Part shown: positions 10,184 to 36,642 of the stretch, piece after piece
How positions within the stretch are numbered: position 1 is the first letter of the stretch
Layout: each line of letters starts with the position of its first letter
Assembly (NCBI GenBank): GCA_016187835.1
Contig: JACPIY010000079.1
Coordinates: 394 to 64,393, forward strand
Source of the DNA: Deltaproteobacteria bacterium
GTDB taxonomy: Bacteria > Desulfobacterota_D > UBA1144 > Nemesobacterales > CSP1-2
DNA: 64,000 nt
Direction: 5' to 3'
Notes under the pieces: model-generated
What the model saw: only the letters and a program-made list of their open reading frames with translations
The model's database searches: none
What the model was told of the DNA's origin: nothing
Made by a program: the position numbers and the translations under genes

Positions 10184-10615
10184 TTAATGCCTCCTCTCGG
10201 ATAATTTTCTTCTCCACCATTCGCTGTGTTTTTTTTCATCAAATATAATGAGATTCAATATCTCCTGGTCATCCCTATTTCTACAGACGGTGGATGCGGC
10301 CTTCAGGAATAATCTTTCCATTTCTTCTCCCATCTGCATGAAAAAACACGTTCCTCTCCACCCTAAAACTGTAGCCGCTTTACCAATGGTTTCACCAAAT
10401 CTCTCAGCTATTTCTCCACCCTTTTTAGGCGTCTCAATTCCCAATTCATCGAGCCTCTTTACAGTCATCATAGTGTGTTTCCCTTCTTCCCTCATAAACT
10501 CCTCTATCTTTATTAGTCTGTCCTGTACTAAATAGAGATTTGATACGGATTCGTAAACGCCTATTGTTACCCTTTTTGAAATATAGATGAGCTTGAGTAC
10601 ATACCCCTTCTTCAT
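10184..10615 (-). CDS. Hypothetical protein, co-oriented between yacG and efp
   Basis: 143-aa ORF overlapping yacG by 4 nt. No motif recognised. Confidence 0.35.
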
Positions 10616-10833
10616 TTTTCTTCATCTATTTCATTCAGTTGTTTTAGATTTTCATCTAATATTGGCTCTTCGGGAACCCTAAACCTCTCTGATGCCCAGG
10701 CACCGAGATCTAAGAGCTTGCATCTTTCTGAGCAAAAAGGTCTCCATTCCTTTCTTTCCCACTGGACTAATTTTGCGCATCTTGGGCACGTTACCTGCAT
10801 ATATCTTGAATTATGGCTAAGGCAATAGGACAA
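10612..10833 (-). CDS. yacG: DNA gyrase inhibitor YacG (zinc-ribbon)
   Basis: '[39 protein letters not shown]' is the four-Cys YacG motif. Confidence 0.7.
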
Positions 10834-10876: not shown

Positions 10877-11530
10877 TTACTTCAGTGGCAATTTAATTTC
10901 ACTTAAATCCAATCCTGTGATTCTCTTAAGTTCCCTTTCCGCTTCTTTAAGTCTTTTTTCTCTGAGAAGCCGAGGGATACTAGACATTGCAACTTGAGTA
11001 TATATATGCTTTCTCTTCTCAGCAGAAATATCGCGGAACTTTTTTCTTATGCGCCCCAGGATTTCCGTAAAAGCCTCATACTCTTCTCCAAAAGCATTCT
11101 CAAGCTCTATACTCAGCCTCCGTGAAAGTGCGGGACTTTTTCCACTTGTAGAAACGGTGAGCATAAATTCCCCCCGTCTCAACACTCCGGGGACGGTAAA
11201 ATCAGAGAGGCCCGGAGCGCTCACAACATTCACCAGAATACCAAGTCTTCTTGCTTCTTCTCCAACCTGGCGGTTTACTTTGCGACTGCTTGTTGACGCT
11301 ACCACCAGGTATGCTCCTCTTAAGTCCCCAGGTTTATAAGCTCTTTTTATGTATTTGATAACTCTTTTATCAGAGAGTTCCTTTAGCGCGGGGACAAGCT
11401 GTGGACTAATAACTTTAACATTTGCACCGCATTCAAGAAGCCCCAGCACCTTCCTTTCTGCAACCCTTCCTCCCCCCACAACTACACATTTTTTCCCCTA
11501 TAAATTCAGATTGACAGGATATTGCTTCAT
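10877..11530 (-). CDS. Precorrin-2 dehydrogenase / sirohydrochlorin ferrochelatase (SirC / CysG N-domain-like); in-frame TAG at codon 11
   Basis: From ATG (revcomp 11528-11530, overlapping the gmhA stop as TAATG) the frame reads '[42 protein letters not shown]'. This aligns with CysG/SirC N-termini through the TAG at 11498-11500. The ORF track starts at GTG 11479 ('[10 protein letters not shown]...'), which would delete the Rossmann beta1 strand. Confidence 0.65.
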
Positions 11531-12120
11531 TATTTAGAGGTATCTTTCTTATTATTACAAACCGCATCCTCGATCAATTCACATATAATATGGGCAACCG
11601 TAATATGCAGCTCCTGAACCCTTGGCGTCGATGTAGAAGGCACGTTAATACAACAGTCAACAATCTTATTTATCTTTCCTGCATCCCCTCCGGTAAACCC
11701 TATGGTTTTAAGCCCCTCTGATTTTGCGAACTCAAGTGCCTTTACAATATTTGGGGATTTTGCGCTTGTTGAAATTCCCCATGCAACATCCACTTTTTTC
11801 CCAAGGGCTTCAATCTGTCTCAAGAATATATTATCAAAGGATGTATCGTTGCCTATTGATGTAAGAATTGAACTATCAGTAGTAAGTGCAATTGCAGGAA
11901 GTGCCTTACGCTCCTTCTGGTAGCGATTCACAAACTCCGCCGCAATGTGCTGGGCATCGGCCGCACTTCCACCGTTTCCAAAAATTAATATCTTCCCGCC
12001 TGCTTTGAGTGATTTATGGATAATATTTGTTGCTTCTGCTATTTCTTTTATAGACTCTTTTGCAAATCGAAGTTTTAGCTCCGCACTCTCCCTCAGTTTT
12101 GAAATTATTTGCTCTTTCAT
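11530..12120 (-). CDS. gmhA: SIS-domain phosphoheptose isomerase (GmhA/DiaA-like)
   Basis: 'ILIFGNGGSAADAQHIAAEFVNRY' SIS motif. Length 196 aa. Confidence 0.7.
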   Translation of the reverse strand: MKEQIISKLRESAELKLRFAKESIKEIAEATNIIHKSLKAGGKILIFGNGGSAADAQHIAAEFVNRYQKERKALPAIALTTDSSILTSIGNDTSFDNIFLRQIEALGKKVDVAWGISTSAKSPNIVKALEFAKSEGLKTIGFTGGDAGKINKIVDCCINVPSTSTPRVQELHITVAHIICELIEDAVCNNKKDTSK

Positions 12121-12123
12121 AGA

Positions 12124-13947
12124 CTATGATCTCTTAAACATTTTCTCGAGTGCCTGAAACGTAATTTCGCTTGCCACTGGCCTTCCATGAGGACAGGAAT
12201 GTGGAAACTCGGCGCGGTCTAGCTCTTCTAAAAGTGCCCTCATTTTTTCCTGATTGAGTTCCTGACTTGCCCGAACCGAGGAATGACAGGCAATTGTGCA
12301 AATTACATGATCAATATCCTCTTCAAGACTCTTTCCCTCGCCCAGCATTACAATCTCTCCTAACACATCCTTTACAAGCCTTTCTACATCCGCATTCTTA
12401 AGTATCGAAGGAATTGATCTTATAAGGAATGAATCCTTTCCAAATTCTTCAAGCTTTATTCCCAGATTTTCTATCTCCTGCTTATGCTTCTCCAGCAGCT
12501 TGGCTTCATAAGGGGATAGTTCGATCGTTAGTGGAATAAGGAGTTCCTGTTTCACAAGACCGTCCTGTTTTGCATAAGCGTTTTTTAGTTTCTCGTAATT
12601 GACCCTTTCGTGTGCAGCATGCTGGTCAATAAGAATCATGCCCTTTTTTGATGCACAGATTATATAAAGCTTTCCTAGTTGTCCAATTATCTCGAGCTCG
12701 GAGAAAAAGCCCTCTTTTTTGAAAAGATAAGGAGATGTCGTCTCGTGTGAATCAGAAAGGCTCTCAACAATTGTGGAGGATGGTTCATCCACTCGTAATT
12801 CGCTAGTAGTTATGTTTTTTAAAGGTTCATTTTCTTGTTCGTATGAATAATGAGATGAGAAAGAAGCCTTCTTTGGTCCGTCTAAGCGTATAGGCTCAAA
12901 AGATGCCCTTCTTTCAAAAAACCCCTGGACTGCATTTTCAATCCTTTGATGATAGCCTTTTATCCAGGGAGACTGTCTTAACATATCAAACACCGAAGCT
13001 TTTATCAAATCCCCTACGAGTTTAGTTCTTTTAAACCTCACCTCGTTTTTTGTTGGATGGACGTTTACGTCAACTTCCTCGGATGGGATATCTATAAAGA
13101 GAACTCCCTGTGGAAATTTCCCCCTTTCAATTAACTTTCCGTATGAATCGATCATCATCCGTGTAAGAAACCTGTCCCTTACCGCCCTCAAATTAACGTA
13201 GGCGTAGAGCTTCTGCGTGGTGGATCTTGTATCCCCAGGATTGCTCATAAATCCGTAAACCTTAATTCCCTCGGATTCCGCCTCAACTTCAAAAAGCTCT
13301 ACGTCAGGGAAAATTCCAGATAACCTTTCCTCGATTGCCTTCCTCTGGGGTAATTGAATTAAGGTCTCTCCTTCGTGTAATACTTCAAATCCCACACCGG
13401 GACGAGAGAGGGCTTCTCTTTGAACAATATCAAGGACGTTTGTAAGCTCGGTTTCCGTTGTTTTCATAAATTTTAGCCTAGCAGGAGTATTATAGAAAAG
13501 ATTCCCTACCTCAACGGTTGTTCCCTGAGGACACCCTGTTTCTTCGACGCCTTTTATTGTTCCGCCCTCCACTAAAATCCTGACTCCAGCGATTTCGTCT
13601 TTTGTCCTTGTTGTAAGTCTAAACCTGGAAACGCTCGCAATGCTTGGAAGCGCCTCCCCCCGAAACCCAAGCGTTCTTATTGAAAAAAGATCCTTTATAT
13701 CTCTGATTCTGCTAGTGGCGTGACGTTCAAGAGAAAGAAGCGCATCGTCCCTTGTCATACCATCACCATTATCTGAAACGCCTATCAGTTTTTTCCCGCC
13801 TGTTCTAAGTTCTATCTGTATCAATGTGCTTCCTGCATCAAGAGAGTTTTCAAGAAGTTCTTTTACGACAGATGCGGGTCTTTCCACTATTTCCCCGGCC
13901 GCGATTTTGGAGACAAGTTGATCAGTAAGAATTCTAATCTTTCCCAT
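12124..13947 (-). CDS. mutL: DNA mismatch repair protein MutL
   Basis: GHKL ATPase N-terminus 'IAAGEIVERPASVVKELLENSLDAG' and C-terminal 'CPHGRP' endonuclease motif. Confidence 0.9.
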   Translation of the reverse strand: MGKIRILTDQLVSKIAAGEIVERPASVVKELLENSLDAGSTLIQIELRTGGKKLIGVSDNGDGMTRDDALLSLERHATSRIRDIKDLFSIRTLGFRGEALPSIASVSRFRLTTRTKDEIAGVRILVEGGTIKGVEETGCPQGTTVEVGNLFYNTPARLKFMKTTETELTNVLDIVQREALSRPGVGFEVLHEGETLIQLPQRKAIEERLSGIFPDVELFEVEAESEGIKVYGFMSNPGDTRSTTQKLYAYVNLRAVRDRFLTRMMIDSYGKLIERGKFPQGVLFIDIPSEEVDVNVHPTKNEVRFKRTKLVGDLIKASVFDMLRQSPWIKGYHQRIENAVQGFFERRASFEPIRLDGPKKASFSSHYSYEQENEPLKNITTSELRVDEPSSTIVESLSDSHETTSPYLFKKEGFFSELEIIGQLGKLYIICASKKGMILIDQHAAHERVNYEKLKNAYAKQDGLVKQELLIPLTIELSPYEAKLLEKHKQEIENLGIKLEEFGKDSFLIRSIPSILKNADVERLVKDVLGEIVMLGEGKSLEEDIDHVICTIACHSSVRASQELNQEKMRALLEELDRAEFPHSCPHGRPVASEITFQALEKMFKRS

Positions 13948-23808: not shown

Positions 23809-24231
23809 CTATTCTAAATTTAAAAATCTTTCCGAAATTTCAATAAAATCCTTTATATCTTGAAGCTTATTCCTGAGGATATCATAAAGAATTTCGTAGT
23901 TTAACTCTTCATATTCATGCGTTAAAACATTTCTAAACCCAACCAGCTTAGTCATCTTATCTTTCATTTCAGTCTTAATAACATTTTCTTCAGCCAATAT
24001 GACGAAGGATTCGCTCATAGTAGTTGGCTTGCGGAATCCAGAAATTGATATTATTACCTCTGCCAAATCAATTGCTGCTTGACAAACCAAGTACAAATAC
24101 CTCTCTACCGCTCCTCTCAATGTAGCATCTGTTCTTATCTCTTCTATGGAGTAATCTTGATATGACTTGAGTATGGACAAGTATTTTCTGACTAAACTTA
24201 TTTTATTTTCTGCAACGGAAAGATTTGTCAT
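23809..24231 (-). CDS. hepT: HepT-like (HEPN, DUF86) toxin
   Basis: 'RNVLTHEYEELNYEILYDIL' is the HEPN R-x4-6-H motif near the C-terminus. Confidence 0.75.
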   Translation of the reverse strand: MTNLSVAENKISLVRKYLSILKSYQDYSIEEIRTDATLRGAVERYLYLVCQAAIDLAEVIISISGFRKPTTMSESFVILAEENVIKTEMKDKMTKLVGFRNVLTHEYEELNYEILYDILRNKLQDIKDFIEISERFLNLE

Positions 24232-24234
24232 ATT

Positions 24235-24627
24235 TCAGGCTTTGGTCAAACCGTACCTGTCAAGAAGTAATTTAAAATCAAAATACTCATTCAGAATCTT
24301 CGGCTCCACTATAGCCCTAAACGGCTCCTCTTCGTAAATTAAGTGACCCTCACTTATAACATTGAATTTAAACTCCGGCATCTCTGATAAATTCAAAATA
24401 GCAATTTCAACTTTATCCGTGCCTAAAATCCTGCTCAGTTGATCCATCAACTCCAGTTTAATATCAAACATATTCTTTGGATCTTTTTCATCAAAGTAGA
24501 TCGCAAAATCATAATCGCTTAAAGGACCCGCCTCCCCTTTTGCTTGGGAGCCGAACAAGTAGACAAGCTTTATTTCGGGATGGTTTTGAAATACCTTTTT
24601 TAATCTCTTCCTTAATACTTCATTCAT
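24235..24627 (-). CDS. mntA: MntA-type minimal nucleotidyltransferase antitoxin
   Basis: 'LFGSQAKGEAGPLSDYDFAIYF' (GS...DxD NTase motif). Lies upstream of and co-oriented with hepT, with a 3-nt gap. Confidence 0.75.
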   Translation of the reverse strand: MNEVLRKRLKKVFQNHPEIKLVYLFGSQAKGEAGPLSDYDFAIYFDEKDPKNMFDIKLELMDQLSRILGTDKVEIAILNLSEMPEFKFNVISEGHLIYEEEPFRAIVEPKILNEYFDFKLLLDRYGLTKA

Positions 24628-24847: not shown

Positions 24848-25354
24848 ATGGAGAAATCAACGGCAGAGTCTCGTGTGAGACGATACATTGAAGAATGGAA
24901 GCAGAAGCTCGTTGACCTCACACGAAGAAATCGTCTCATCTATTTTAAGCGAACCAAAGGTTCAACTCTGATAATCACGCAACCCGATGTCCAGACCGTT
25001 TTTGAGCGGTTAGTAATCAAGGAGGCCAATTGGGAATTCTGGTTTCCACCATCGGAAGAAAAGGATACTGACGAAGATTCTATCCTTGATCCGTCAAATC
25101 CAAGTGAGAAAGGACAAGAATCTCAGTCTCAATCAATATTTCCAGAACAAGAAGCTACTTTCAAAGAACCTATTGTTGAAGTTTATGACCTTGTCCCTAA
25201 AAAGCCCTCCACTTCATCCAAACCCATTAGAATCAATGAACTGGTGATCGAGGGTTTGGGTAGAGAAGAACTCGAAAAAGTCATAAAGAATCTCTACAGG
25301 CGTTCCAGTTCGGACTATGAAGAGCGAGGTGTCAGAATTTCTATCTTGCACTAG
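24848..25354 (+). pseudogene. Fragment 1 of the giant helicase gene (DUF4011 N-terminus)
   Basis: See the parent entry. Ends at a TAG created by the frameshift. Confidence 0.55.
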
Positions 25355-25503
25355 GAATTTGGGAATGGAAGGAAAGTAACTCATCTGAAGTTATTCGATC
25401 TCCCTTAGTTTTAGTACCAGTAGAATTAAGTCGCGAATCTGCTCGTGAACCATTTCGCCTCTCACCTGTAAGTGAGGATGTCATCCTAAATCCTGCTCTG
25501 CAA

Positions 25504-27900
25504 GTGAAGTTACGAAAGGATTTCAATATTGAACTGCCTCCACTGCCTGACGACTGGGAAGAGGTTAGTCTTTATAAGTATTTTAATTCCGTTGCTAATG
25601 CCGGTGGAAAACTTAACTGGTCGGTAAAGTTTTTAGCACTAATAGGGCTTTTTTCATTTTACAAGATAGTAATGCATCAAGACCTAGAAGCGAATGAGCC
25701 TGTGATATCTAAACATCCCATAATTTCAGCCCTCGCTGGAGAACCCCCAGAACAAGGCATTGTCGTAGGTAGTCCTATAGATGAAAAAGAACTGGACTCC
25801 ATTCGAGAACCAGATAGGATGTTCCATATTTTGGATGCCGACAGCAGTGAGCAAGTCTGCATTGAACTTGCTCGTCAGGGACAGAGCTTTGTTTTGCATG
25901 GACCTCCCGGCACTGGGAAAAGCCAAACCATTAGCAACATCATAGCCGAGTTTATAGAATCGGGCAAAATAGTTCTTTTCATCAGTGAGAAAATGGCTGC
26001 TCTAGAAGTTGTATTTAAAAGACTGCGTGAGGCTGGACTTGGAGATTTCTGCTTGGAACTCCATAGCCATAAAACAAATAAAAGGGAAGTTATTAAAGAG
26101 CTCAACCGTAGTCTCGAAGAACGAATTGTACCAAAGAAATCAATATCAGAAATCGAATTCCAAAGACTGCTTCAGTTAAGAGATAAACTCAATAATTATG
26201 TTACTGCCCTACATAAAATTCGTGAGCCATTAGGAATAAGCGTATTTAACGCGCTTAGCAAGCTTGTTAGTCTTAGGAATGTTCAATTCGTCTCGGTCAA
26301 TATTCCAAACATTGATGCGCTAACCCCCGGAAGAATCGTGGAATTTGAAGAGTTAGTAGCACAGTTAAAAAACGTCTGGGGGGTTGCCGAAGAAGGAAAA
26401 AACTTTCCTTGGTATGGATATCAAGAATCCAGAATCACTCTTGAGTTAAAATCGGAATTGTCATCTCTTCTGGAACGGCTTTTGAACCTGGTTGAACATT
26501 TAAAGTCACTTTCAAATCAATACGCATCGTCTGTAGGACTTGACTCCGTACTAAGTCTTTCTGAGGTTGAATGGCTGGTGAAAATTGGAAATCTCCTTTC
26601 CCAAAGCCCAGAGACTAGTCCAAAATGGCTTATTGGTGAAGAACTCGATAATCTAATAAAGGAAGCTACTCAATACCAAGAATTATTCAACTCATACCAA
26701 ATAACCCTAAATTCACTCCAGAAAAAGTACGACAGCAGGTTCTTCGAGCTACCAGTTGATTTTACTTCTCATATTGAGGAAGCCTGGTCTCAAACCTCTA
26801 ACTTATTTACAACTTTTGATTTTAATGGAGCAGAGTTACTCACCCACCATGCAATAATCCTAGAATTTGTTAAAGACACGAAAACCTGTATTAAGCAATG
26901 GCTAAATGATGTCAGAAATTTAGCACGATACCTAGGTTTCGAAATTGATAATCTTAGCTTGGAACGCATAAAACAAATCGGGAAGCTTTCTTTACTTTGT
27001 TGTTCGCATACTCGACCCGAAACAAATTGGTTTGACCCTATTTTTCTTCAAAATGTTAAGAATATTTTGCCAAAGGCCCGTGAGTCCTACGTAGAATATA
27101 AACATAAGAAACAAAGTATAATGGAGCAATACTATGAAACGATTTTTGAATTGGACCTGGATAGGCTTGCACAGTGTTACAGTGGCAATTATCGAACTTT
27201 ATTTGATCTGCTAATGCCTGCCTTCTTTCACCCTTCTAAGCAAGATGCAAAAACAATAACTACTTATCATAAAACAGAACAAAATTATACTGCAGCAATG
27301 TTTTCTGCTCCCCAGTCTTATAAGGAAGATACCTATAGAAAAGGTATAGAGTTTCTACAAGTTTTTGAAAGATTCCAACAGTTGTCACGAGATTTGCTAG
27401 TAAGCGCATATGAACTCCTACAAATATTAGGCGTACAAGTAGATCACACAAATCTGGAAAAGATACGAGACTTGGCACGGTTAGTGATACAAACTGGAGA
27501 GGTAAGTTGTGAAGCAGAATGGTTAGACCCTGTCAGGTTAAAGCAAGTGGGAGCTCTTCTTCCAACCATCAAGAATGACTATCTTGATTTTAAAAAATCT
27601 AAAGAGAAATTGATGGAGAACTATGATGAGAGTTTTCTCGAAATGGATCTCGATACACTTATAGAAAAGTATAATAGTGCCTATAAAAGACTATTTCGCT
27701 TGTTAAAACCCTCCTATTACAAAGATCAAAAAGCTATAGCTCGTACAACCCGTAGCGGTAACATTCCCACATCTTTAAAGAAAGACCTTTTAGCTGCTCG
27801 CGAGCTAAAGCGACATGCAATAAGACTCGAAAAAGAACGCGAGCAAACAGCTCAAATATTAGGTCGTCTATTCCAGGGCATATTACAAACTTCGAACTGA
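25504..27900 (+). pseudogene. Fragment 2 (rest of DUF4011, Walker A, first half of the repetitive insert)
   Basis: The frame is open upstream to 25321 without an ATG. Internal ~150-aa tandem modules ('LERIKQIGKLSLLCC...NWFDP' and 'LEKIRDLARLVIQTG...EWLDP'). Confidence 0.55.
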
Positions 27901-27932
27901 TAGAGCTTGCATACAATTTAGCTTTAGAAGGT

Positions 27933-29252
27933 GTGAAAATTACTGGTTTTCCAGTTCCGCATGAATTAATAAAAGTTCTATCTTTTGACACCCAGTCTAA
28001 CCGCGAAATTATTAATCTTGGACATAAACTTATTCGCTTATTTCAAGACTGGAGCGAATCGGTACAGAATTTTACATACCTCTCTTCATATGAGCAGACA
28101 ACCATTACTGAGTCCTCTATCTTGCGAAGCTCGCTTCCGATATTTGAGCAGTGGTTGTTTAGTCTTGAGCTTCCACTTTCCGATTTAAAAGCCATAGCCA
28201 AGACAAACCATGGAGAGTCTATACCATCAACGGTACGAGAGGATCTATTAAGAGCTTATGAAGTAAAGCAGATTCAAGTTCAACTAAAAAACGAAACCGA
28301 AAATTTAAATCTTCTACTAGGGCAGTATTTCAAAGGGGAGGATACAGATTTTGATTTAATAGAAAAAGCTCTTAACATTGCAAGTGAAGCTTTGCTTCTA
28401 ATCAGACAGCCAAACATACCAAAGGAACTTGTAAATGCTATCTCATTGGGAACGATTCCCTCTCCAGAATTACAAACCGTAGGATCACGCATATTAAATT
28501 CCTTGGAGGCTTGGGAAAAATCAGCCCATGATTTAAGCCACCTAATTCCAGTAGACCGTCTACCCGGATCCGAAGCATCTATGTGGTTAAGCCCTATACA
28601 AAATTTAGAGCAGTGGGTTGACGATATCGAAACACCTCTATCCAATTTATCCTCTCAAATAGTCAATATTCTTAAAACCTGCTTCCAATTCAATCCACCT
28701 GACTTAGCAACTTTAGTTCGTGATTTACAAGCTTTAGATAACTTAAGAGATTTTGAATCCCTTATTACGAGAGAATCGGAACGCCTTCAATCGCTTTATG
28801 ATTCTTGGTTCCTAGGTGTCAATACTAAATGGAGTGAAATTGTATCAGCTCTCAATTGGACAAGAGAAATTCGTTTTTTGTTCGGCAATCGCTCTATGCC
28901 TGCTTTCTTTGTTGATCTTGCATCTCAAGGGGCAAGATCCGCCCCTAACTCGCAAGAATTAACTAAGATTTACCAAATTACTATAGAGCTTTTTCAATCT
29001 CTTCAAAGTCGGTTTGATTTACAAGAACTCGACTATAATGGAATTCCGCTCCGCGAACTAGAACTTGACCAGTTACTACAAAGACTTATCCAACTTCGTA
29101 CCAGGATTGATGAGCTACAAGACTGGATAGCATTCAAAGTACTTGAAAAACGATTTGTTGAAGTTGGATTATTCAGTTTTCTCCAACAGCTCACTGGTAA
29201 TCCCCCTCCAGCCCATCAATTATTGGATATCTTTCGAAGAGGAATCTACTAG
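27933..29252 (+). pseudogene. Fragment 3 (second half of the repetitive insert)
   Basis: The frame is open from 27762 and overlaps fragment 2's frame. Ends at in-frame TAG 29250. Confidence 0.5.
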
Positions 29253-29273
29253 GCTTGGGTTGATAGGTTCTAC

Positions 29274-31523
29274 ATGTTAGACCAAAATCTTGGAGACTTC
29301 AGAGGGCAAAACCATGAACAAGCAGTTGCTGAATTCCGTGAACTAGACCAGAAATTAAATCGTCTATCCGCATATCTAGTAATTGAGAAAGCAAATTTAC
29401 GCAAACCACGAGACCTTTTCATACAGGCGCGCGATACTGAAGTAGCCGTTCTCAAACAAGAAGGCGCGAAGAGAAGGCGCCATTTGCCTATCCGCCGTCT
29501 TTTCGAGAGGATTCCAAATCTATTAACTCGCCTTAAACCATGCTTGTTCATGAGCCCACTTTCAGTAAGTCAATTTCTCCCCTCAACAGTGCTTAAGTTT
29601 GATCTAGTAGTCTTTGATGAGGCTTCTCAGATTTGTACAGAGGACGCTGTAGGATCCATCTACCGCGGACATCAACTAGTCGTTGCCGGAGATAACAAAC
29701 AATTACCGCCTACTGCTTTTTTCCAACAGGGAATCGCAGAAGAGTACGATTGGGATGATATTGGTGATGAAGAATTTGCAATCTTTGAAAGCATTCTCGA
29801 CCAATGTAAATCGATAGGTCTACCTGAAAAGATGCTCAGGTGGCACTATCGCAGTAAACATGAGTCTTTAATCGCCTTTTCCAATAGACGATTTTACTTA
29901 GATAGGTTGATTACATTCCCATCTTGCCGACTTAGGCATGAAACTCTGGGTATCAAGTTTTATTATGTTCCTGATGGCGTATATGACAGGGGTGTTAAAA
30001 GAAACAACCCTCGGGAAGCACAAGTCGTTACAGACTTGGTCTTTGATCATTTGCGTCAATACCCAACTAAAACACTCGGAATTGTAGCTTTTAACTTACA
30101 ACAAATGACTACTATAGAAGATGAGATTGAGCTACGCCTAAGGGCTCAGCCTGAATTCGAACAATTTTTTAAGGAGGATCGACTTGAGGGGTTTTTTGTT
30201 AAGAATTTGGAGAACGTGCAAGGTGACGAACGGGATGTCATCATCTTCAGTATAGGGTATGGATATGACCAGAATAAACGAATCACCATGAATTTTGGTC
30301 CACTGAATAAAGCTGGGGGGGAGCGTAGGCTTAATGTTGCCGTAACCCGTGCACGTGAGAAGGTTAAACTTGTCAGTTCAATCAGGGCATCAGATATTGA
30401 CTTGAACGCTACTCAAGCTGCTGGTGTACTAAATCTATATCACTATTTGGATTATGCTGAACGAGGATTATCAGCACTGGAACTTTCGCACCCTCAGGGC
30501 TCAGGTGAGTACGAATCACCACTTGAGGAGGACATTGCTAATGAAATTAGGCAATTGGGCTATCAAGTTATACCCCAAGTGGGTTGTAGTGGCTACCGAA
30601 TTGATTTAGGTGTAATTAATCCAACTGAACCAGGCCACTTTTTATTAGGAGTGGAATGCGATGGAGCAACCTATCACTCCGCTTACACCGCGAGAGACCG
30701 AGATCGGCTTAGACAACAAGTGCTAGAAGCGTTTGGCTGGCGCATACATAGGATATGGTCACCCGATTGGATAAGCAAACGAGACTCAGAGTTAAAAAAA
30801 CTCAAGCAAGCTATTGAGGATGCGAGACAGCATATTTTACATCATTTCAAAAGTGAAAATCCTGACTCGGAATACAGAGCAATCCAAACCTTTAACTTCC
30901 AAATAGAAACGCAGATAGTTAAGCTTCAACCCGATGAGAAAACCGGAATTCTGGCTGAAACGATTCCATATAAAGTTTGTAAACTTAAACCCAGTAGCAA
31001 GATTGGGTCAGAATTTCACCTTCCTCAACATAGACAAGAGCAAAGCCAACTCATCGCAAAGTTGGTAGAACAAGAGGGACCAGTTCATATCCAATACGCG
31101 GCACGTAGGTTAATTAGTGCATGGGGATTAGGACGGATGGGCCCGCGAGTTGTGAAAGCTATCAAAGAAGCTGTGAAACTCTGCCAGAAAGAAGGTACCT
31201 TGAAAAGAGAAGGAAAGTTTTTATGGCCACCGCACGTTACAAAGGTATCTGTACGAGTTCCAGTTGACGGCGTTCCAGAGACGTTTAGAGCGATTGAGCA
31301 CATCCCCACCGAAGAGATTAAAGATGCGATGCTTATTATAATTCGGCATGGCCTTAGTATTAGCGTTGAATCCCTTCTAATAGAAACAGCGAGAATCTTT
31401 GGGTTTAACAGAACCGGAGACAACATTAGAAAGGAATTACTAAAGGTATTCAAAGAATTACTGGAAGAAGGTATGATCGTCCAGAGTGGCGGTTTCGTAG
31501 CTCTAAGAACAAACAAGACATAG
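29274..31523 (+). pseudogene. Fragment 4 (helicase motifs II-VI, Vsr/DUF559-like nuclease, DUF3320)
   Basis: Same frame as fragment 3. 'GIY*AWVDRFYMLDQNLGDF' reads through the TAG. Confidence 0.55.
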
Positions 31524-36210: not shown

Positions 36211-36527
36211 TTTTAACGTTCTCCTTTTGCAGCTTAACTATTTGACCGCTAATAGACAGGACTAGGTATTAGGTTTTCAGTGACAACAATTAAGTTAAAA
36301 CCTAACAGGCAACACCTCAAACCTAATCCAACAATGTCAATTGGCTTCGTGTTGTGGTTCCTGCAATCCCCCTCTTAAACGCTATAACAAATCCTAGCAC
36401 CTGGCCTCTCAGTGAACTCACGACGAAAACCGACTATAGCCTGCGATTTCGCGGCTTAAGACCTTCGAATTATATTATATTTATCAGAAAAGTTAAACAA
36501 AGGGAATCTATATAATAAAAAAGAATC

Positions 36528-36642
36528 GGGGCAGCTACCTACTTTCCCACTCCCGTACGGGAGCAGTATCATGGGCCTTGAAGAGCTTAACTTCCGGGTT
36601 CGGAATGGGACCGGGTGTTTCCTCTTCAGTATAGCCACCCAG
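36528..36642 (-). rRNA. rrf: 5S ribosomal RNA (stand-alone copy)
   Basis: Minus strand 'UCUGGGUGGCUAUACUGAAGAGGAAACACCCGGUCCCAUUCCGAACCCGGAAGUUAAGCUCUUCAAGGCCCAUGAUACUGCUCCCGUACGGGAGUGGGAAAGUAGGUAGCUGCCCC' matches the bacterial 5S consensus: helix I ends pair, 'CCGAAC...GGAAGUUAAG' loop, 'GGGAGUGGGAAAGUAGG'. Confidence 0.75.

Follow-up and report, generated by a model that had tools for sequence, protein, structure and literature searches.

A single base separates an interrupted sirC-like gene from its intact counterparts in other assemblies of the same organism. We put the probability at roughly 0.93–0.95 that the in-frame TAG at 11500-11498 of the window (the whole 64-kb stretch of DNA analysed here) is an unprogrammed single-base substitution, an ordinary point lesion that may be an error or a real null allele. 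Nothing new is indicated, and the window is without evidence of altered decoding. The result is mainly a quality flag: the GenBank protein MBI2487552.1 (200 aa, GTG start) is a shortened model that goes back to one doubtful base, and the normal gene of the organism encodes a 217-aa SirC-like enzyme. This codon and a second amber codon in a helicase gene are not to be taken as signs of stop-codon reassignment or suppression in the lineage.

Layout and family of the sirC-like gene

The gene lies in a tightly packed mutL-gmhA-sirC string. The features around the stop codon, all on the minus strand, are as follows.

10877..11530, minus strand: sirC / cysG-N-terminal-type gene (precorrin-2 dehydrogenase / sirohydrochlorin ferrochelatase family), assigned from its translation, Pfam, TIGR01470 and PDB matches, and the intact version in other assemblies
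11477..11479, minus strand: GTG at which GenBank starts the 200-aa MBI2487552.1
11498..11500, minus strand: in-frame TAG at codon 11, where the population has GAG; the substitution at 11500 is G>T (plus strand: C>A)
11528..11532, minus strand: TAATG, in which the native ATG of sirC (11530-11528) overlaps the stop of gmhA
11530..12120, minus strand: SIS-domain gene (gmhA-like) upstream of sirC, PF13580 SIS_2

The sirC-type gene comprises 217 codons and a stop, and is broken at codon 11 in this assembly. Read from 11530, the minus strand begins ATG AAG CAA TAT CCT, continues GTC AAT CTG AAT TTA up to the TAG, and resumes with GGG AAA AAA TGT and GTA GTT GTG GGG GGA GGA, just as the first-pass annotation had described an ATG overlapping the gmhA stop and a minus-strand frame with a TAG at 11498-11500. 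By its sequence, the TAATG arrangement of gmhA and sirC is typical of translational coupling. The first in-frame start past the TAG is the GTG at 11479-11477, 18 nt downstream of it, and the annotated MBI2487552.1 begins there; its contig, 66,299 bp long, belongs to a GenBank MAG with the label "Deltaproteobacteria bacterium".

Profile searches with the 217-aa form place the residues upstream of the TAG within the protein domain. Pfam NAD_binding_7 matches residues 7-114 (E = 1.5e-31, 109 bits against a cut-off of 22.1), and its alignment begins at residue 7 with profile position 2. Sirohm_synth_M gives a weak Pfam match. TIGR01470 (cysG_Nterm) reaches 136.2 bits, where the cut-off is 62.3, and spans profile positions 1-202 of 205. 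Alignments to structures in the PDB start from residue 3, with 3DFZ (Bacillus megaterium SirC, 3e-22) and 1PJQ (Salmonella CysG, 2e-20). The resemblance to a CysG/SirC N-terminus that had been noticed at first pass is upheld by these matches, the ten residues before the TAG lying in the conserved N-terminus. The reading frame also holds the Rossmann β1 strand and glycine-rich loop (C-V-V-V-G-G-G-x-V-A-x-R-K).

The SirC of B. megaterium, the CysGB module of Salmonella and yeast Met8p are NAD-dependent precorrin-2 dehydrogenases / sirohydrochlorin ferrochelatases. The window gene has in common with them NAD_binding_7, Sirohm_synth_M, a helical C-terminus, a similar size of about 217 aa and the N-terminus YP-x-x-L-x-L-x-G-K-x-C-x-VVGGG-x-VA-x-RK. 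It differs at codon 11, where TAG occurs in this assembly only and 3DFZ has Lys and 1PJQ Arg. Scores against NCBIfam equivalog models were under their cut-offs (147 against 204; 105 against 223). At the family level, the gene is a regular SirC / CysG-N / Met8p member, with a predicted dehydrogenase and/or ferrochelatase activity.

Codon 11 in other assemblies: error or strain-specific allele

Contigs of the same organism were found through exact-protein look-ups of the neighbouring genes; they had been assembled separately (Logan) from runs with nearby accession numbers. Three contigs crossing the site, from SRR12113422 (L001, 13 kb), SRR12113428 (L002) and SRR12113426 (L003), match the window at 99.85–99.97% identity, and on the coding strand each of them shows G at 11500. 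On a contig of SRR12113432 (L019), the identical intact 217-aa protein is encoded with GAG at codon 11. Codon 11 is GAG (Glu) in all four other runs covering the site (SRR12113422, -426, -428 and -432). The gene was called intact, at 217 aa, in two of these four runs, and in the other two the contig ends within the gene. L001 is one of those with an intact call, a 217-aa NAD_binding_7 protein; the intact product is recorded on three contigs, including one further contig of 10-20 kb. An uninterrupted frame from the native start, absent in the window, is present in the assemblies of SRR12113422 and SRR12113432. The resemblance to sirC is not due to chance, because the surrounding DNA is identical to the intact genes of other assemblies but for one base. 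A TAG allele would be expected to yield products of 200 and 190 aa, and exact-product look-ups found neither of them on record. Since the other runs read GAG and the products of the TAG allele are not on record, the TAG is, at the level of the assembled sequences, a single G>T difference private to the assembly of this MAG.

The window differs from the other contigs at five positions in 24,133 compared bases, four of them besides 11500.

11500: nonsense change; G in each of the three contigs covering it
12691: GAG/GAA, synonymous; L002 has the window allele
25848-25849, plus strand: TG in the window against CC in three other assemblies; DSSQ (a conserved family motif) to DSSE, inside a pseudogene
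33259: TCG/TCA, synonymous

Two of the four additional differences are synonymous third-position transitions and look like real polymorphisms. Going by these positions, the MAG is a genuinely, if slightly, distinct haplotype, which makes a real private SNV at 11500 plausible. A contig of SRR12113428 (L016) ends exactly at 25847, at the MAG-private site 25848-25849, suggesting that both haplotypes coexist in that sample. L002, from the same run, carries the window allele at 12691, yet has GAG at codon 11. It dead-ends at 11495, five bases past the site, and a further G>T discrepancy lies at 11497, within the same run of G; if that change is real, a Gly that is mostly conserved would there become Trp. 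Its end and the discrepancy at 11497 would reflect either a local miscall hotspot or an assembly-graph branch at the G-run.

For the T at 11500, we consider a consensus error slightly likelier than a real strain-specific null allele, and a little better than an even bet. The T would then be a base-call or consensus error in the G-rich, homopolymer-rich stretch TTTAGAGGGGAAAAAATGTGTAGTTGTGGGGGGAGG, the true codon 11 would be GAG, and translation from the ATG at the end of gmhA would give the organism its normal enzyme of 217 aa. By our computation, a random single-base change in this gene has a 4.6% chance of creating a stop. Real polymorphisms at the consensus level are rarely nonsense, and G>T / C>A is a typical class of Illumina or oxidative-damage artefacts. 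The G>T at 11497 and the dead end of L002 suggest local G>T miscalls and error-prone calling in this G-/A-homopolymer stretch. Against an error, besides the plausible private SNV of a distinct haplotype, a contig of 66 kb suggests that read depth was reasonable, and well-covered positions seldom end up with an erroneous consensus base. The break of the SRR12113428 contig near 11500 could also stem from a genuine G/T polymorphism within the sample.

A real strain-specific nonsense allele (GAG>TAG) is a serious, if less probable, contender. Translation would stop after ten codons in what would be a recent loss-of-function variant that segregates in the population; reinitiation at the GTG would at best yield a protein lacking the Rossmann β1 strand, and the copy would be null or strongly hypomorphic. 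The haplotype of the MAG, with four further differences that include two synonymous transitions and a dinucleotide change, is in keeping with such an allele, as are the ends of SRR12113428 contigs at or near two MAG-private sites (L016 and L002), which fit coexisting haplotypes. Decay is moreover tolerated elsewhere in the same genome, in the helicase pseudogene described below. However, the TAG was found in no other assembly, and almost all of 40 relatives compared, down to 40% identity, keep the gene conserved and its N-terminus intact. L002 combines the MAG allele at 12691 with GAG, and a polymorphism at 11500 leaves the extra G>T at 11497 unexplained. If the T is real, it would represent a single strain-level knockout allele of modest population-genetics interest. 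We regard it as very improbable that a real allele in one strain of this groundwater-type Desulfobacterota has cost it the siroheme-branch enzyme, or left a trickle of it through near-cognate UAG readthrough or GTG reinitiation. Such a strain would carry a naturally segregating hypomorph of tetrapyrrole synthesis, and nothing points to a dedicated decoding mechanism.

Possible decoding of UAG and the helicase pseudogene

If UAG were decoded, by a suppressor tRNA, as pyrrolysine, or through programmed or leaky readthrough, the full-length enzyme would be made and the helicase UAG would be read likewise. Two in-frame TAGs in conserved contexts within one 64-kb window might invite this explanation, and a tRNA-CUA could lie in the genome beyond the window. 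Still, UAG is not conserved at the site: the same population has GAG, and in an alignment of 40 orthologues (40–93% identity) all 40 have a sense residue at codon 11 (E14, R8, K7, Q3, G2, N2, A2, H1, T1), which makes residue 11 a variable polar position. The 90% cluster of the gene has seven further members of 217 aa, mostly from JGI/IMG and some also from Logan or ENA; six of them are about 93% identical to the window gene, with the same ATG start and Gly at position 11. Scans of contigs from genomes and metagenomes with the 217-aa protein gave, among the matches listed, relatives at 41%, 38%, 86% and 47%, and the relative at 86% has GAG at the site. It further argues against decoding that TAG is the most used terminator in the window, ending 19 of its 51 long ORFs (TAA 17, TGA 15), including housekeeping genes such as mutL at the normal end; the first-pass annotation had rightly called it a frequent genuine terminator. 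The two frameshifts of the helicase gene would be beyond rescue by suppression. We conclude that the sirC TAG is most probably not decoded as an amino acid, amber suppression being without support. Of the three origins proposed at first pass, a nonsense lesion and a sequencing error are both still live, while suppression has lost its place to the GAG in four runs, the sense residues of the orthologues and the stop usage. The sense codon at 11498-11500 that had been sought in the reads is seen, as GAG, in the assemblies of other runs.

No tRNA-CUA was found within the 64-kb window, where the only tRNA is Val-CAC. As for a stimulatory RNA structure, the 100 nt past the sirC TAG fold no better than shuffled sequences (z = 0.53). 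The sirC case resembles pyrrolysine (pylTSBCD) and suppressor tRNA-CUA systems in its bare in-frame UAG within a conserved gene. Unlike in those systems, the UAG is unconserved at its site, TAG is not depleted as a terminator, the window lacks a tRNA-CUA, and relatives have a variable polar residue at the position.

A third interrupted gene was sought among in-frame ORF pairs with one stop between them, and by domain search the checked pairs were separate genes. The rejected candidates were an S41 peptidase / polysaccharide deacetylase, RtcB / SerRS, RRF / an amino-acid-kinase-family protein, an unassigned 544-aa ORF / a GGDEF-HD protein, and a luciferase-like protein / SPOR. The TAG-separated in-frame pair across 43295 likewise consists of two unrelated genes.

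Among the RNA genes, a full-length 5S rRNA gene (36526-36642, minus strand, 97 bits) is isolated, with a lysA-like gene on one side and an unrelated plus-strand ORF on the other. Neither 23S nor 16S rRNA had a match anywhere in the 64-kb window, so that this gene does not seem to be linked to the remainder of an rRNA operon.

The second amber codon lies in a decayed gene on the plus strand, whose breaks were mapped by tblastn with its closest relative, P0141 (59–65% identity).

24848..31523, plus strand: decayed DUF4011 / AAA_11 / AAA_12 / MTES_1575 / DUF3320 helicase-nuclease, from Pfam domains over four ORFs and tblastn in three frames
25339..25348, plus strand: first frameshift, frame +2 to +1 (tblastn with P0141)
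27876..27885, plus strand: second frameshift, frame +1 to +3 (tblastn with P0141)
29250..29252, plus strand: in-frame TAG (GIY*AWV), aligned to Gln in the closest relative

At the TAG, RRGICQAW of P0141 aligns with RRGIY*AW of the window, and the codon probably arose by CAG>TAG. The 168-aa first fragment, which results from the first frameshift, is identical in four other runs. Three other runs share the identical 439-aa fragment between the second frameshift and the TAG, with the flanking ORFs at the spacing of the window. For the 798-aa helicase fragment of the window, an exact-product look-up gave no record. The TAG itself recurs in four other assemblies: SRR12113422, where contig L004 matches the window through the TAG, and SRR12113429, -401 and -428. 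Because the TAG is reproduced in other assemblies and is accompanied by two frameshifts, the comparison marks the helicase gene as a pseudogene that is fixed and disabled several times over. Its two frameshifts and its single CAG>TAG, each seen in three or four other assemblies, fit the classic pattern of bacterial nonsense and frameshift pseudogenes; sirC, in contrast, has a single lesion that is reproduced nowhere else. The first-pass annotation had seen the same situation in both genes. The GIY*AWV stop is indeed there, but the two are not one phenomenon, as the helicase TAG is fixed and the sirC TAG belongs to this assembly only. The helicase TAG is silent on suppression and does not corroborate the sirC case.

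GenBank annotates the last helicase fragment as a normal DUF3320 protein (MBI2487569.1). Between the Walker A and motif II of the helicase, a long insert (27019-28484, plus strand) includes a segment of about 250 residues that is duplicated internally; residues 459-925 of P0141 give a second alignment, at roughly 29–31% identity, and the window copy is longer than P0141. Directly upstream of the decayed gene is a HepT-like / MntA-like (NTP_transf_2, Polbeta) toxin-antitoxin pair (23809-24627, minus strand).

The native start and the annotated GTG

At least 17 residues precede the GGG motif in 38 of the 40 orthologues, with the N-terminus M-[KR]-[QY]-Y-P-[VI]-N-L-[ND]-L-x-G-K-K-C. Because this N-terminus is conserved in the orthologues, the ATG at 11530-11528 is, on alignment evidence, the native start, so that the TAG falls inside the gene and interrupts it. 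A GTG start without conserved sequence upstream in relatives would have been the other outcome of this alignment, and the opposite was seen. The KKCVVV β1 strand precedes the GGGxVAxRK loop, and its role is that of a standard Rossmann fold. The expectation that a GTG start would delete this strand was correct: the GTG-start form still scores 117.8 bits against TIGR01470, above the cut-off, and matches only from profile position 15.

That the GTG-start 200-aa protein is the genuine product, with the upstream frame as a short leader, is the least probable explanation of all: the annotation pipeline called it and it passes the TIGR01470 cut-off, but it begins without β1, the upstream residues of 38 orthologues have the same M-[KR]-YYP-x-NL-x-L-x-GKKC, no Shine-Dalgarno-like sequence can be read at a normal distance before the GTG, and identical DNA elsewhere is read as 217 aa. 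The GTG start is an artefact of the upstream TAG and removes β1.

Downstream of sirC, the interval 10184-10833 (minus strand) holds two ORFs: a small one with a zinc ribbon that by eye resembles YacG, and one of 143 aa, which has no Pfam match and is conserved beside efp in all sister contigs.
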